From the NCBI RefSeq assembly GCF_003334785.1, contig NZ_QOWV01000007.1: DNA of 64,000 nucleotides. One strand, written 5' to 3'. Positions 11,574-61,528 of the stretch are shown here, in pieces. Both the position numbers and the translations under genes were made by a program. The notes beneath the pieces were generated by a model. It did not search any database. It was given only the letters and a program-made list of their open reading frames with translations, and was not told where the DNA came from. The stretch's first letter is position 1, and each line of letters starts with the position of its first letter. This DNA comes from Escherichia coli. Lineage in GTDB: Bacteria > Pseudomonadota > Gammaproteobacteria > Enterobacterales > Enterobacteriaceae.

Positions 11574-12231
11574 ACTTAACTCCACTGTCACACTTAACTC
11601 CCTTTCCCTTATTGGAATGCAGAGAAATAATCCTGAAGAATATGATTTATCATGCATATAAAATAAGAAAAAGCAAAATGAGTAAAATTCGGAAAACATA
11701 AAGATACGGGTTCTGATAAAAACAGAATCCATTGCCGTGGAATGAGTCATTTACCACAGCATAATAATCCATAATGTTTTTGTTGCGAAAACAATCTAAT
11801 CATAACTACCGCGAATACTCAATCATCTACAAAATGGATTAAATGTGCTTATTTAATAATTAATTTATATATTTAATGCATTAATTCTTAACATTAATTG
11901 ATCAATAATATTCACCAAATCAATATCAAAAAAATCGCAAAAGATATAATTCAATACAAATCATCAGGATAGGTTTTGCAACGCGTGCATTTTGTCCCCT
12001 TTTTCCTCGTTGATTAGATGCAAAAATTTATGCTGAAATATGTCAACCGATGAAAAGCGTCGGTAGTTAAGCAGAAATTAATATCGCTTACTTTAACCAC
12101 CGCAGCACAATTAGCTAATTTTACGGATGCAGAACTCACGCTGGCGGGACGTTTTTATTGCGTCAGGGTTGACATCCGTTTTTGTATCCAGTAACTCTAA
12201 AAGCATATCGCATTCATCTGGAGCTGATTTA
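11574..12231. promoter_or_regulatory. AT-rich divergent leuO / leuLABCD control region
   Basis: 658 bp, strongly AT-rich (runs such as aataattaatttatatatttaatgcattaattcttaacattaattg); candidate leu promoter -35 TTGACA at about 12169-12174, about 58 nt upstream of leuL ATG. Confidence 0.7.
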
Positions 12232-12318
12232 ATGACTCACATCGTTCGCTTTATCGGTCTACTACTACTAAACGCATCTTCTTTGCGCGGTAGACGAGTG
12301 AGCGGCATCCAGCATTAA
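12232..12318 (+). CDS. leuL: leu operon leader peptide LeuL
   Basis: 28-codon [31 protein letters not shown] with four consecutive Leu codons, immediately followed by terminator hairpin. Confidence 0.92.
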
Positions 12319-12337
12319 GCCAGCACGCAGTCAAACA

Positions 12338-12368
12338 AAAAACCCGCGCCATTGCGCGGGTTTTTTTA
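12338..12368 (+). terminator. leu attenuator (rho-independent terminator)
   Basis: cccgcgcc-attg-cgcggg stem (about 12343-12360) followed by T7 run (12361-12367), 43 nt upstream of leuA ATG. Confidence 0.9.
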
Positions 12369-15075: not shown

Positions 15076-17092
<2,017 letters not shown>

Positions 17093-17097
17093 TCCCC

Positions 17098-17123
17098 TTG
17101 CCCGGTCAAATGACCGGGCTTTC
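17098..17123. terminator. Hairpin between convergent leuD and setA
   Basis: gcccggtca-aa-tgaccgggc (about 17100-17119) followed by ttt; sits between the two convergent stop codons. Confidence 0.65.
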
Positions 17124-17140
17124 CGCTATCGTCCACGTCA

Positions 17141-18319
17141 TCAAACGTCTTTAACCTTTGCGGTTAAAAATAATGCGACAACAGAAATAACCGCAATTAC
17201 CCAGTAGACAGCAAAGTGCCCCCAACTTTGTGCAATTGCTCCCTGAATAACGCCAGCCAGAATTACCCCGGTAGAAATACTGTTAGTAAATAAGGTGGTA
17301 GCTGCCCCCGCTCTTCCAGGCATTAAATCCTGAAACCATAGCATCCCAATACCCGCAACAATGCCGATAAATACAGCGTTAAAAAGTTGCAGCGTCATCA
17401 ACGCCATACGGCTATTAAAGAAAATCAATCCGGTGTAAAACAGTACTCCTGCCGCCACTGCTATGACCATCATTCGCCGCTTACCATAACGTTTGACATA
17501 GTAGCCAGCCAGAATCATTGCTGGTATTTCCAGTCCAGCTGCCGTCCCCATCAGGAAACCCGCCAGTTTGTCTGGCAATCCTAACTCGCTACTGATCCAC
17601 AACGGCATATCAATAATGTACATGGTGTTGCAGGTCCACATTAACGTCGAGGCGACAAATAACATCCGTACGTTACTATCCTGCCAGCCACCTTGCATTG
17701 ATAAAGCATTTTCCGACGGCAGTTCTACCCGCGCCACAGACGGAAGCATAAATGCAATCAATACCAGACTGAGTGTGAATATCCCGGCGGCAATCGAAAA
17801 CATCACCGTAAAGCCGTAATTCAACGCCAGCATAAAGGCCAACGGTGGACCGATAACCCATGCCAGAGAAAGCTGCGCACGCATCACCGAGCTAAACATC
17901 ACCACTTCTCGCGCCGAGTTATCCGCATATTCCCGCGCCAGAGCAAATAACTGTGGCATTGCCGTATTGGCCAGAGATGCCAGAAGCACACCACAGGTGA
18001 TAAGCGTCAGATAATGACGATTAAATGCAAACAATAGCGCATTGCCGATAGCCATCAAACAGCAAAATATAATCAGTTTTCGCCGATCGCCCTGACTGTC
18101 AGAACGTTTTGCCAACCAGAGGCTTACGCCGATCCCAGCAATAGCATTCACCGTATAAAAGAGGCCGATCCAGAAAGGTTGCGCGCCAACCTCACGACTC
18201 AGAAATAAGCTCAATGTAGGAGCCTGTAGCGCCCCGGCCACCCCCATCATAAAAGCGACCAGCATAAATGCCGCGTAAACACCGTTCATACGGCGAGCCA
18301 TCGTCATTATCCAGATCAT
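17141..18319 (-). CDS. setA: MFS sugar efflux transporter SetA
   Basis: 392-aa ORF, 12 hydrophobic segments; immediately downstream of sgrS. Confidence 0.93.
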   Translation of the reverse strand: MIWIMTMARRMNGVYAAFMLVAFMMGVAGALQAPTLSLFLSREVGAQPFWIGLFYTVNAIAGIGVSLWLAKRSDSQGDRRKLIIFCCLMAIGNALLFAFNRHYLTLITCGVLLASLANTAMPQLFALAREYADNSAREVVMFSSVMRAQLSLAWVIGPPLAFMLALNYGFTVMFSIAAGIFTLSLVLIAFMLPSVARVELPSENALSMQGGWQDSNVRMLFVASTLMWTCNTMYIIDMPLWISSELGLPDKLAGFLMGTAAGLEIPAMILAGYYVKRYGKRRMMVIAVAAGVLFYTGLIFFNSRMALMTLQLFNAVFIGIVAGIGMLWFQDLMPGRAGAATTLFTNSISTGVILAGVIQGAIAQSWGHFAVYWVIAVISVVALFLTAKVKDV

Positions 18320-18346
18320 ACGTTCCCTTTTTAGCGCGGCGAGAAT

Positions 18347-18573
18347 AAAAAAAACCAGCAGGTATAATCTGCTGGCGGGTGATTTTACACCAATACTCAG
18401 TCACACATGATGCAGGCAAGTCAACTTTCAGAATTGCGGTCATCCCACTGCATCAGTCCTTCAAGCATGGTTAATCGTTGTGGGACGCTTAACCAACGCA
18501 ACCAGCACAACTTCGCTGTCGCGGTAAAATAGTGCTGGTAAAACTGACGCATGGGGCACCCCCTTGCTTCATC
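18347..18573 (-). ncRNA. sgrS: Small RNA SgrS (glucose-phosphate stress), about 227 nt
   Basis: 5' end GATGAAGCAAGGGGGTGCCCCATG (plus-strand complement at about 18550-18573); 3' end is hairpin ccagcaggtataatctgctgg plus U8 (plus A-run 18347-18354); contains sgrT ORF; divergent from sgrR. Confidence 0.9.
18421..18552 (-). CDS. sgrT: SgrT, 43-aa peptide encoded within SgrS
   Basis: ORF MRQFYQHYFTATAKLCWLRWLSVPQRLTMLEGLMQWDDRNSES, ATG at 18552 preceded by GGGGG; track ORF 18421..18720 is an upstream extension. Confidence 0.85.
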   Translation of the reverse strand: MRQFYQHYFTATAKLCWLRWLSVPQRLTMLEGLMQWDDRNSES

Positions 18574-18640
18574 GTTAGGAATTATTGACTTAATATAGGG
18601 AAAATAAAATTGCTGTCTTTTGCACAGGAGTTCCCCTTTT

Positions 18641-20296
18641 ATGCCATCTGCTCGTCTGCAACAACAGTTCATCCGCCTGTGGCAATGCTGCGAGGGTAAA
18701 TCGCAGGACACAACGCTCAACGAACTGGCAGCGTTATTGAGCTGCTCGCGTCGTCATATGCGCACCCTGCTCAACACCATGCAGGATCGCGGCTGGCTGA
18801 CGTGGGAAGCGGAAGTCGGGCGCGGTAAACGCTCGCGTCTGACATTCCTCTATACCGGGCTGGCGCTTCAGCAACAGCGGGCGGAAGACCTGCTAGAGCA
18901 GGATCGTATCGATCAACTGGTGCAGTTGGTTGGCGACAAAGCGACTGTGCGGCAAATGCTGGTTTCTCATCTGGGCCGCAGCTTCCGCCAGGGGCGGCAC
19001 ATCCTGCGCGTGCTCTACTATCGTCCGTTGCGTAATCTGCTACCTGGCAGCGCATTGCGCCGTTCCGAAACCCATATCGCCCGGCAAATCTTCAGTTCGC
19101 TAACGCGCATAAATGAGGAAAATGGGGAACTGGAAGCAGACATCGCCCACCACTGGCAGCAAATTTCACCGCTTCACTGGCGTTTCTTTTTGCGTCCAGG
19201 AGTCCATTTTCACCATGGTCGTGAACTGGAAATGGACGATGTGATCGCCTCTTTAAAACGAATCAATACGCTGCCGCTCTATTCGCATATTGCTGACATT
19301 GTGTCGCCGACGCCCTGGACGCTGGATATCCATCTCACGCAACCGGACCGCTGGTTACCGTTACTGCTGGGGCAAGTTCCGGCGATGATCCTGCCGCGCG
19401 AATGGGAAACCCTCAGTAACTTTGCCAGCCATCCCATCGGCACCGGTCCGTATGCGGTGATTCGCAACAGCACCAATCAACTGAAAATTCAGGCATTCGA
19501 TGACTTCTTCGGTTACCGGGCATTAATCGACGAAGTTAACGTCTGGGTTCTGCCGGAAATTGCCGACGAGCCAGCCGGAGGGCTGATGCTAAAAGGTCCA
19601 CAGGGCGAGGAAAAAGAGATTGAAAGCCGCCTGGAGGAAGGTTGCTACTATTTACTGTTCGACAGCCGCACCCATCGCGGGGCGAATCAGCAAGTCAGGG
19701 ACTGGGTAAGCTATGTGCTTTCTCCAACTAATCTGGTCTATTTCGCTGAGGAACAGTACCAGCAACTGTGGTTCCCGGCTTATGGACTGCTCCCCCGTTG
19801 GCACCATGCCCGCACCATAAAGAGCGAAAAACCGGCTGGCCTGGAAAGCCTCACCCTAACCTTTTATCAGGATCACAGTGAGCATCGGGTGATTGCCGGG
19901 ATCATGCAGCAGATTCTGGCAAGTCACCAGGTCACGCTGAAAATCAAAGAGATCGACTACGATCAGTGGCATACAGGAGAGATCGAAAGTGATATCTGGC
20001 TAAACAGCGCCAACTTTACCCTGCCGCTGGACTTCTCTGTTTTCGCACATTTATGCGAAGTGCCACTGCTACAACATTGCATTCCCATTGACTGGCAAGC
20101 CGACGCTGCTCGCTGGCGCAATGGCGAGATGAATCTGGCGAACTGGTGCCAGCAACTGGTCGCCAGCAAAGCGATGGTGCCATTATTGCACCACTGGCTG
20201 ATCATTCAGGGGCAACGCAGTATGCGCGGCCTGCGCATGAATACCCTCGGCTGGTTCGATTTTAAATCAGCGTGGTTTGCGCCACCGGATCCATGA
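18641..20296 (+). CDS. sgrR: Transcriptional regulator SgrR
   Basis: Start [15 protein letters not shown] at 18641 (track ORF begins 21 nt upstream); 551 codons; N-terminal DNA-binding plus solute-binding-protein-like domain. Confidence 0.93.
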
Positions 20297-20329: not shown

Positions 20330-20450
20330 CCGTTCTCAACGGGGTGCCACGCGTACGCGTGCGCTGAGAAAATACCCGTCGAACCTGATCCGGATAACGC
20401 CGGCGAAGGGATTTGAGGCTCCTTCTCAAGTCCTTTGCCACTCTTTTTTG
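20330..20450 (+). ncRNA. sroA: TPP riboswitch (THI element; SroA region) in thiBPQ leader
   Basis: THI-box core ctgagaaaatacccgtcgaacctgatccggataacgccggcgaaggga at about 20364-20410, directly upstream of thiB start. Confidence 0.88.
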
Positions 20451-29110: not shown

Positions 29111-29545
29111 CGCATCCGGTATGTAACGCCTGATGCGACGCTGACGCGTCTTATCTGGCCTACACGCTGCGATTTTGTAGGCCGGATAAGCAAAGCGCAT
29201 CCGGCATTCAACGCCTGATGCGACGCTGGCGCGTCTTATCAGGCCTACGCGCTGCGATTTTGTAGGCCGGATAAGCAAAGCGCATCCGGCATTCAACGCC
29301 TGATGCGACGCTGGCGCGTCTTATCAGGCCTACGCGCTGCGATTTTGTAGGCCGGATAAGCAAAGCGCATCCGGCATTCAACGCCTGATGCGACGCTGGC
29401 GCGTCTTATCAGGCCTACGCGCTGCGATTTTGTAGGCCGGATAAGCAAAGCGCATCCGGCATTCAACGCCTGATGCGACGCTGGCGCGTCTTATCAGGCC
29501 TACACGCTGCGATTTTGTAGGCCGGATAAGCAAAGCGCATCCGGC
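29111..29545. repeat. Tandem array of five 85-bp BIME units (each two inverted REPs) plus a partial sixth
   Basis: Unit cgcatccggcattcaacgcctgatgcgacgctggcgcgtcttatcaggcctacgcgctgcgattttgtaggccggataagcaaag recurs at 29111, 29196, 29281, 29366, 29451 (exact 85-bp period), partial copy at 29536; units 2-4 identical, units 1 and 5 differ by a few bases. Confidence 0.9.
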
Positions 29546-61348: not shown

Positions 61349-61528
61349 TGCCGGATGCGGCGTAAACGCCTTATCCAACTCTGCTGGAGAGCAACCGTAG
61401 GCCGGATAAGATGCGCCAGCATCGCATCCGGCGATAGCTGTCGGATGCGGCATAAACGCCTTATCCAACCCGGCTGGAGAGCAACCGTAAGCCGGATAAG
61501 ATGCGCCAGCATCGCATCCGGCGACCAG
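61349..61528. repeat. Two tandem ~90-bp BIME units (four REPs) between caiE and caiF
   Basis: ggatgcggc(g/a)taaacgccttatccaac ... gccggataagatgcgccagcatcgcatccggc repeated at about 61353 and 61443. Confidence 0.85.

Follow-up and report, generated by a model that had tools for sequence, protein, structure and literature searches.

Together with the small protein SgrT that it encodes, SgrS is a textbook dual-function bacterial small RNA (sRNA). In published descriptions, the RNA is 227 nt long, with the sgrT gene at nt 22–153, a base-pairing region at nt 167–187, and a 3′ Hfq-binding terminator (PMC12310071; PMC4021124). SgrR-dependent induction has been published for K-12 (PMC4021124), as has Hfq binding to K-12 SgrS, for which the tail of eight U residues must sit at the 3′ end (PMC4509938). 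The SgrT of K-12, when expressed, is active and binds PtsG (PMC12310071; PMC2760806). Approximately half the polymerases pass the sgrS terminator in plasmid constructs under normal growth; transcripts extending into setA, as seen by Northern blotting, also came from chromosomal sgrS, and such extended RNAs fail to bind Hfq (PMC4509938). The criteria of Horler and Vanderpool (2009; PMC2760817) were (i) a promoter of its own, divergent from an sgrR homologue, (ii) a small 5′ ORF with SgrT identity, and (iii) complementarity to ptsG, together with a terminator. Other RNAs that unite a base-pairing RNA and a small-protein mRNA in one molecule are RNAIII/Hld of S. aureus, SR1/SR1P of B. subtilis, and Spot 42/SpfP and AzuCR/AzuC of E. 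coli (PMC12310071), but none of them is related to SgrS/SgrT in sequence, structure, targets, or peptide, and the analogy is one of principle only.

Here, we describe the sgrS locus in a 64,000-nt stretch of Escherichia coli DNA (assembly GCF_003334785.1, contig NZ_QOWV01000007.1), hereafter called the window. Its closest described counterpart is that of K-12 MG1655 (RF00534, formerly RyaA), which shares with it 226 of 227 nt, the SgrT protein, the GGGGGTGCCCC hairpin, the seed, the terminator, the U8 tail, a divergent sgrR, and a setA gene 27 nt downstream, and differs by one synonymous change. The SgrS RNAs of Salmonella, Citrobacter, and Enterobacter have the same four-part architecture and the same synteny (sgrR divergent from sgrS, followed by setA), share the SgrT core motif, and have an identical seed where the retrieval pattern fixed it, although their 5′ two-thirds are only about 65–77% identical to the window. 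In Enterobacter, Leclercia, Klebsiella, and many other genera, SgrT carries about 5–9 extra N-terminal residues. The K-12 hairpin is missing from homologues of the Salmonella/Citrobacter/Enterobacter type, and SgrT production is higher in Salmonella.

Identification of sgrS in the window

A first-pass annotation of the window had proposed that a 227-nt transcript at 18347–18573 is the known RNA SgrS and had named a covariance-model search as the check. When the whole window was scanned with Rfam, the SgrS model returned exactly this interval, on the minus strand, which the annotation had left unspecified:

18573 to 18347, minus strand: SgrS small RNA, 227 nt, start at G18573 and 3′ end at 18347 (Rfam RF00534)

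The match was full length and untruncated (model positions 1–232 of 232), with posterior probabilities near 1, and scored 227.1 bits (E = 8.9e-64) against a gathering score of 37 bits for the family. The published nt 22–153, nt 167–187, and 3′ module map to window positions 18552–18421, 18407–18387, and 18376–18347, respectively. The sequence is 99.6% identical to that of K-12 MG1655 (226/227 nt), which bears out the designation as a known element. The sole difference, U to C at SgrS nt 36 (window 18538), is synonymous (Tyr5, TAT to TAC), and in the predicted fold it turns a U–G pair with G72 into a C–G pair, so that the pair is kept. The minimum free energy of the RNA was −81.8 kcal/mol, with a z-score of −3.95 relative to shuffled sequences. 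Among 5426 complete E. coli genomes, 5400 contained a match to the 227 nt, in a single copy in each, but the exact window sequence was rare, with 100% identity in only 4 of these 5400. The RefSeq gene order is the same as that in the window (thiB, TPP riboswitch, sgrR, sgrT, setA, and leuD), and the RefSeq records that show the sgrT coding sequence (CDS) at the locus contain no SgrS RNA feature.

The homologues used for comparison were collected by scanning one genome per species with the pattern ATGTGNNNCTGAGTATTGGTG, which gave 100 loci. Approximately 95 of these were from Enterobacteriaceae with sgrR upstream; E. fergusonii was absent from the set. Pattern matches with neither SgrR nor SetA nearby were disregarded, and five were regarded as chance matches: Veillonella, Phormidium, a Woesearchaeota MAG, Candidatus Pantoea formicae, and Yokenella (setA not in range).

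The identity of the element, its sequence parts, and their conservation are direct observations, and the interval is almost certainly E. coli sgrS, encoding the dual-function sugar-stress sRNA SgrS and SgrT. None of the observations speaks against this identification. It is an already known, ordinary SgrS/SgrT locus and not a new element. Because the sequence differs from K-12 by one base and its exact form is rare, we also considered a decayed sgrS pseudogene or a chance Rfam match, for which no supporting evidence was found. The full-length match, the single copy per genome within a conserved sgrR–sgrS–setA–leuD context, the synonymous nature of the only difference, which replaces a G–U with a G–C pair, and the intact promoter, seed, and terminator all argue against decay or chance, and we consider either to be extremely improbable.

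Promoter region and the divergent sgrR gene

The region upstream of SgrS contains a series of blocks that were invariant or at least 85% conserved in an alignment of 19 genera:

18574–18643, minus strand: upstream blocks as a whole (alignment of 19 genera)
18643–18627, minus strand: block at −70 to −54, overlapping the sgrR start codon and ribosome-binding site
18615–18607, minus strand: block at −42 to −34, conserved in 19 genera
18601–18591, minus strand: block at −28 to −18, conserved in 19 genera
18587–18581, minus strand: −10 element CAATAAT at −14 to −8, conserved in 19 genera
18641–20296, plus strand: sgrR, the activator of sgrS (ORF and RefSeq annotation)

The first-pass annotation spoke of a recognizable 5′ end, and the RNA does begin with GATGAAG at 18573. 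The conservation of both this motif and the CAATAAT element in 19 genera supports 18573 as the start of SgrS. Conservation of the −10 element and of the sequences required for SgrR activation has been described by Horler and Vanderpool (PMC2760817), and the conserved blocks in the window are presumably SgrR binding sites. The best candidate in a promoter scan, AAGACA-16-TATATT (18619–18592), stops 19 nt short of the SgrS 5′ end; given the conserved CAATAAT, it was discarded as a promoter for sgrS.

As had also been proposed, sgrS is transcribed divergently from sgrR: the sgrR ATG at 18641 on the plus strand and the first nucleotide of SgrS, at 18573 on the minus strand, are separated by 67 nt. 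RefSeq places a 1656-nt gene, annotated as "DNA-binding transcriptional regulator SgrR", at the same position relative to SgrS, and about 90 enterobacterial loci share this divergent layout. In terms of criterion (i), the RNA thus appears to be transcribed from a dedicated promoter that faces away from an sgrR homologue. With sgrR adjacent and the putative operator and promoter blocks conserved, transcription of the window sgrS would be induced by SgrR when sugar phosphates accumulate.

The sgrT reading frame and its upstream extension

Two overlapping ORFs end at the same stop codon within the SgrS interval:

18552–18421, minus strand: sgrT CDS, 43 codons plus stop, SgrS nt 22–153 (Pfam and RefSeq)
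18421–18720, minus strand: 99-codon ORF with a TTG start, an artefact (mechanical ORF list)

The 43-codon ORF that had been assigned to sgrT was recovered. Its ATG at 18552 is preceded by AAGGGGGTG, the stop codon ends at 18421, and the 43-residue product, MRQFYQHYFTATAKLCWLRWLSVPQRLTMLEGLMQWDDRNSES, matches the Pfam SgrT family (PF15894) over residues 3–37 with E = 3.5e-13. RefSeq annotates the identical 132-nt CDS as "glucose uptake inhibitor SgrT" (WP_001248770.1), and the protein is identical to K-12 SgrT. An NCBIfam scan of SgrT matched no family model, which means that RefSeq must have assigned the name by a different rule. At an 80% consensus, the SgrT core reads.QF...YF.AT...SWLA......RL..L..LMQW; the window protein retains the QF, YF, AT, WL, RL, L, and LMQW elements and reads C-W-L-R at the consensus S-W-L-A. 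Both the PF15894 match and the core motif place it in the SgrT family, and the locus therefore contains the small 5′ ORF with SgrT identity of criterion (ii).

The coding character of the ORF was examined in 70 homologous loci plus the window (71 sequences, 66 of them distinct) over an ungapped 35-codon SgrT core. The frames in this set are stop-free by construction, which carries no evidence. Among the 66 distinct sequences, the column entropies summed to 24.3, 22.0, and 35.8 at codon positions 1, 2, and 3, respectively. This bias of substitutions to the third codon position is a coding pattern, observed directly, and it supports past selection on the ORF. Translation of SgrT in the window strain and its inhibition of PtsG would be expected from the identity with the K-12 protein.

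The longer ORF had been dismissed in the first-pass annotation as a misleading upstream extension, and the coordinates agree: its TTG falls within sgrR, on the opposite strand, 147 nt before the point where transcription begins. The first 56 of its codons lie upstream of the sgrT ATG, 49 of these upstream of the transcription start, and the extension runs through promoter DNA, antisense to sgrR codons 1–27. One could nevertheless suppose that it is a real gene of which sgrT forms only the C-terminal part, as the frame is uninterrupted in the window and about 9 of 96 homologous loci, spread over several genera, have a comparable long open frame, "MNCCCRRPEGIKGEL...". Elsewhere, in most homologous loci, the frame closes upstream of sgrT and the ORFs are 40–54 aa long; moreover, both the transcription start and the −10 element downstream of the TTG are conserved, RefSeq annotates only the 132-nt CDS and not the 99-codon ORF, and the Pfam match is confined to residues 3–37 of the 43-residue peptide. 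The extended "peptide" appears conserved because the promoter and the 5′ end of sgrR are conserved, and there is next to no chance that it is a gene. The 43-codon frame is retained as sgrT.

An inverted repeat over the sgrT ribosome-binding site

Immediately upstream of sgrT, the RNA contains an element that has drawn attention in K-12:

18563–18553, minus strand: inverted repeat GGGGGTGCCCC, SgrS nt 11–21, overlapping the sgrT Shine–Dalgarno sequence (read from the sequence)

The G-rich ribosome-binding stretch reported in the first-pass annotation is present where it was placed, but the description falls short, as the stretch forms part of a K-12-type inverted repeat that has been published as translation-inhibitory. 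Wadler and Vanderpool described this same inverted repeat in K-12, where weakening the hairpin raises the output of SgrT, and where a pairing-deficient sgrS allele rescues growth only with the hairpin weakened; they left open whether the hairpin is a regulatory feature rather than a defect (PMC2760806). Horler and Vanderpool found the inverted repeat in 3 of 15 strains (PMC2760817).

The window and K-12 both read GGGGGTGCCCC, and four other E. coli strains read GGAGGTGCCCC. When the two variants were counted with SNP-centred 40-mers across the 5426 complete E. coli genomes, the G variant was found in 1426 (26%) and GGAGG in 3856 (71%). The G variant is predicted to form a local hairpin of −6.0 kcal/mol, whereas the GGAGG (A) variant forms none. 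In a 60-nt nascent context, the predicted accessibility of the Shine–Dalgarno sequence was 0.44 for G and 0.57 for A, but in the full-length ensemble there was little difference (0.31 and 0.33, respectively). Because full-length folding is nearly equal for the two variants, the predictions lend modest support to the proposition that the ribosome-binding site is sequestered, which rests on the published genetics (PMC2760806).

Given the K-12-type hairpin in the window, low SgrT output from the native RNA is to be expected; the coding function of the native window allele is probably weak, and riboregulation is probably its dominant function. A more radical view is that the window SgrS is in practice a riboregulator only, with the hairpin-limited sgrT contributing little and possibly being lost. 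The window carries precisely the repeat for which inhibition of sgrT translation has been reported (PMC2760806), with a local hairpin that the GGAGG variant lacks, and sgrT is evidently dispensable in nature, with ATG changed to ATT in O157:H7, a frameshift in one strain, and no ORF in Yersinia. However, the sgrT ORF of the window is intact and encodes the same protein as K-12 (WP_001248770.1), which is active and binds PtsG once it is expressed; the substitutions across genera follow the coding-type pattern; Shine–Dalgarno accessibility in the full-length ensemble is almost equal between the variants; and the hairpin may itself be regulatory, a point its discoverers left open (PMC2760806). 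We consider a riboregulator-only SgrS rather unlikely, and regard the window RNA as a dual-function molecule in which the riboregulatory arm probably predominates.

The base-pairing region

Downstream of sgrT lies the region published as pairing with target mRNAs:

18407–18387, minus strand: conserved pairing region, SgrS nt 167–187 (homologue alignment and published region)
18400–18387, minus strand: pairing core CUGAGUAUUGGUGU (homologue alignment)

The pairing core was invariant in 55 homologues, a figure to be read with the fact that nt 166–186 were fixed by the retrieval pattern. In the predicted ensemble, nt 174–181 had a mean unpaired probability of 0.87. In an ungapped test, SgrS nt 174–187 formed 13 of 14 possible pairs (12 Watson–Crick and one G–U) with positions −28 to −15 of ptsG; these positions lie shortly before the ptsG Shine–Dalgarno sequence and coincide with the published site. 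This is the ptsG complementarity of criterion (iii), but 88 of 977 random 130-nt window tiles (9%) also reached 13 of 14 pairs, so the pairing is consistent with the mechanism and not significant alone. With RNAduplex, the pairing of the seed with the ptsG leader was modestly better than that with shuffled sequences (2 of 300) and window tiles (20 of 984). RNAduplex applied to the full-length SgrS and the ptsG leader gave an unphysical, loop-filled duplex of 190 nt and was replaced by the ungapped test.

Terminator, Hfq-binding module, and setA

The 3′ end of the RNA and the gene that follows it are composed of the following elements:

18347–18376, minus strand: intrinsic terminator and putative Hfq-binding module (terminator scan)
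18376–18354, minus strand: terminator stem–loop GCCAGCAG-ATTATAC-CTGCTGGT, with the 3′ arm CTGCTGG(T) (terminator scan)
18354–18347, minus strand: U8 tail, eight T (read from the sequence)
17141–18319, minus strand: setA, sugar efflux transporter, 392 aa (ORF and RefSeq annotation)

The hairpin and U8 terminator that had been noted at the 3′ end were recovered as an 8-bp stem, five of the pairs being G–C, with a 7-nt loop and a predicted energy of −12.6 kcal/mol, followed by the T-run, in agreement with the remaining criterion of Horler and Vanderpool. When the helices were scored explicitly in 46 homologues, the terminator helix was paired in 99.7% of cases. The top pair changed from G–C to A–U in nine homologues and one pair changed from G–C to U–G in two, but most pairs were invariant and the covariation support is thin; the loop varied freely. 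A small candidate hairpin, GGUG/CACC, was 62% paired in an alignment that has register shifts. The 3′ end of the window RNA is identical to that of K-12 SgrS, for which Hfq binding has been demonstrated (PMC4509938), and with both hairpin and U8 present, the module would be expected to bind Hfq.

The setA ATG lies 27 nt past the SgrS 3′ end, across the gap at 18346–18320. This spacing equals the published one, in which setA initiates 27 bp after the sgrS terminator (PMC9765468).

Two sgrS haplotypes in E. coli

Among the 5400 E. coli genomes with a match, identity to the window SgrS was bimodal: 3242 genomes were at least 90% identical and 2158 were 80–90% identical. The setA gene was present in 3241 E. 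coli genomes. In the divergent class, sgrT was followed directly by leuD, with no setA, in all three genomes sampled. The identity of 88% between the K-12 and CFT073/O157 alleles, as well as their synteny, was published in 2009, and the ATG-to-ATT change in the O157 sgrT is also already in the literature.

The two classes were 97–100% identical across sgrR, the promoter, and SgrS nt 1–131. At the left junction, identity dropped to 60–80% from approximately nt 132 (window approximately 18442, sgrT codon 37), with the seed and the terminator stem exempt from this drop. The SgrT tails accordingly read QWDDRNSES in the window class and QWEGSHSDY in the setA-less class. The right junction lies at the last codon of leuD (window approximately 17092), which ends in ...AFMN-stop in the window and ...FMR-stop in the setA-less Escherichia, Salmonella, and C. 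koseri. SgrS of the CFT073/O157:H7 type matches the window in the promoter, the 5′ end, SgrT residues 1–36, the seed core, and the terminator stem, and is 97–98% identical over nt 1–131, but it falls to 60–80% from approximately nt 132 outside the seed, has the QWEGSHSDY tail and a GGAGG ribosome-binding site without the hairpin, and lacks setA, with leuD directly next; in O157:H7, ATT replaces the sgrT ATG. Judged from these sequences, E. coli has two sgrS haplotypes, in which the 3′ third of the RNA and the setA status of the locus are co-inherited.

The wider distribution bears on how these haplotypes arose. Within Escherichia, setA was absent from E. albertii, E. whittamii, Escherichia sp. 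E1V33, and another Escherichia representative, and in all other genera among the pattern-matched loci, sgrS was followed by setA. SgrS nt 1–131 follow the species tree. Window nt 187–227, however, were 93–95% identical to Citrobacter and Salmonella but 83–85% identical to the setA-less Escherichia. Escherichia sp. MOD1-EC7003 had an identical 3′ end and a SetA that was 99% identical, but its SgrR was only 95% identical, a pattern which suggests that the setA block has been exchanged among Escherichia lineages. About 40% of E. coli carry the setA-less block, as do the other sampled Escherichia species with the exception of MOD1-EC7003.

We offer, tentatively and as a possibility short of a favoured conclusion, the reading that the window sgrS is an evolutionary mosaic, and that E. 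coli keeps two long-separated haplotypes whose block is exchanged by homologous recombination. According to this reading, sequence native to Escherichia would run from the promoter through the 5′ end to residue 36 of SgrT; a single block would take in the seven remaining SgrT codons, the spacer, the Hfq module, and setA; and exchange would have its junctions at codon 37 of sgrT and at the final leuD codon. The setA block itself may have been imported or may represent an old polymorphism. Our literature search, which was incomplete for setA, found no paper describing the sgrS–setA linkage or the breakpoints.

Proposed mechanism

The regulation of the window sgrS, its dependence on Hfq, the repression of its targets, and the activity of its SgrT are expected by identity with K-12, and the first four steps below are drawn from published work on K-12, whose sequence is one base away from that of the window. 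Under glucose-phosphate stress, when sugar phosphates accumulate, SgrR would activate the sgrS promoter. The resulting 227-nt RNA would end in the hairpin and U8 tail that constitute the Hfq-binding module. With Hfq, the single-stranded nt 167–187 would then pair with the translation-initiation region of ptsG, and also target manXYZ, yigL, and others; the block to translation and RNase E-dependent decay would leave fewer glucose transporters. The same RNA would serve as an mRNA for the 43-residue SgrT (nt 22–153), which would bind the PtsG permease and block transport directly. Polymerases reading through the terminator would produce an sgrS–setA mRNA that does not bind Hfq and expresses the SetA efflux pump. 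Finally, the GGGGGTGCCCC hairpin over the sgrT ribosome-binding site would keep native SgrT low, leaving riboregulation dominant.

Significance

The SgrS locus is useful as a calibration point for genome scans and not as a discovery. It contains a functional 43-codon gene inside an "RNA gene", which an ORF-length filter drops, and a longest-ORF rule replaces sgrT with a spurious 99-codon protein whose start lies in promoter DNA. RefSeq/PGAP annotation alone misses SgrS, showing the sgrT CDS but not the regulatory RNA. The allele carried by an E. coli strain changes the biology to be expected from the locus, as the ribosome-binding site may have a hairpin that lowers SgrT, and setA may lie behind the terminator or be absent. 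If the mosaic reading is true and the two blocks differ functionally, with terminator read-through, the binding of Hfq, and the SgrT tail as candidate differences, the locus would represent the natural modular swapping of an sRNA 3′ domain together with its downstream gene.

Two sgrS haplotypes in E. coli

The sgrS gene occurs in E. coli as two haplotypes, and which of them a genome carries tracks the presence or absence of setA, the gene downstream of SgrS. Among complete E. coli genomes, 3,242 carried the K-12-type allele and 2,158 the divergent one, and setA was present in 3,241 genomes. One haplotype junction lies at codon 37 of sgrT and the other at the final codon of leuD. The observation concerns eight loci from other genomes (L003, L004, L005, L009, L031, L059, L065, and L093) and the following block in the window:

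17092-18442, haplotype block comprising the 3' third of sgrS, setA, and the end of leuD

This 3' block of the window was closer to the Citrobacter and Salmonella sequences than to the setA-less Escherichia allele. The setA and leuD stop codons are convergent and lie 48 nt apart. Within this spacer (17093-17140) is an inverted repeat rich in G+C, which reads CCCGGTCAtttgaCCGGG on the minus strand and is likely to act as a terminator in both directions. The spacer forms part of the setA-linked block and is missing from the setA-less haplotype.

Sequence variation in SgrS and sgrT

The SgrS of the window differed from that of K-12 only at position 18538 (SgrS nt 36), a synonymous change in sgrT codon 5 (TAT to TAC) that strengthens a predicted stem pair from U-G to C-G, and this exact 227-nt SgrS was found in only 4 of 5,400 genomes. 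The ribosome-binding site of sgrT was polymorphic at position 18561 (SgrS nt 13, within 18553-18563), reading GGGGG in the window and K-12 (1,426 of 5,426 complete genomes) versus GGAGG (3,856 of 5,426). The G form completes the hairpin GGGGGTGCCCC, which has been published as translation-inhibitory (PMC2760806).

Defects of sgrT itself were found in other E. coli. The ATG is replaced by ATT in O157:H7 strain TT12B (L003:1522-1653), and strain HS-02 (L004:1522-1652) carries a frameshift. SgrT is regarded in the literature as not made in O157:H7; RefSeq nonetheless lists O157:H7 sgrT as intact, under a protein accession (WP_001248768.1) shared with an ATG-bearing strain.

Upstream of sgrT, its reading frame has a spurious extension (18574-18720, minus strand; MNCCCRRPEGIKGEL...), which was open in about nine loci from several genera (L009, L010, L019, L031, L040, L055, L059, L065, and L077). 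Coding was rejected as the source of its apparent conservation, which arises because the 5' end of sgrR is conserved and the promoter is shared.

Annotation of SgrS and other RNA elements

The PGAP-annotated RefSeq records (L001:3001-3227 and L002:3001-3227, corresponding to 18347-18573 of the window) annotate sgrT as a CDS and include the TPP riboswitch close by, but contain no ncRNA feature for SgrS, so that the regulatory RNA is hidden if annotation alone is used. Other RNA elements and repeats in the window were as follows:

12218-12367, plus strand, leucine operon leader upstream of the leu genes (Rfam RF00512, 145.8 bits)
20330-20429, plus strand, TPP riboswitch (RF00059, 65.9 bits)
29180-29500, plus strand, four tandem naRNA4/REP-type matches (identical scores, 60.2 bits each)
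61400-61470, minus strand, fifth naRNA4/REP-type match (70.7 bits)

The riboswitch lies directly past the sgrR end (20296) and immediately 5' of thiB (ORF end 21443). The tandem matches have a period of exactly 85 nt, and the naRNA4/REP-type matches look like REP/BIME repeat arrays.

Differences across genera

In 13 Klebsiella and Raoultella loci (L038, L044, L061, L064, L069, L079, L087, L089, L095, L097, L103, L104, and L106), no T-run was found within about 75 nt past the conserved ptsG-pairing seed, and setA started 150-220 nt downstream instead of at about 90 nt. The 3' end of SgrS in these loci appears, from the sequences, to be longer or otherwise organised. At the other end of the RNA, a 19-genus alignment showed that Escherichia sgrS has about 15 nt fewer between the Shine-Dalgarno sequence and the SgrT core than many other genera (at 18553-18556 of the window); consequently, the N-terminus of Escherichia SgrT is MRQFY, whereas that in Enterobacter, Klebsiella, and others is M(K/M)RSTxRQFY.
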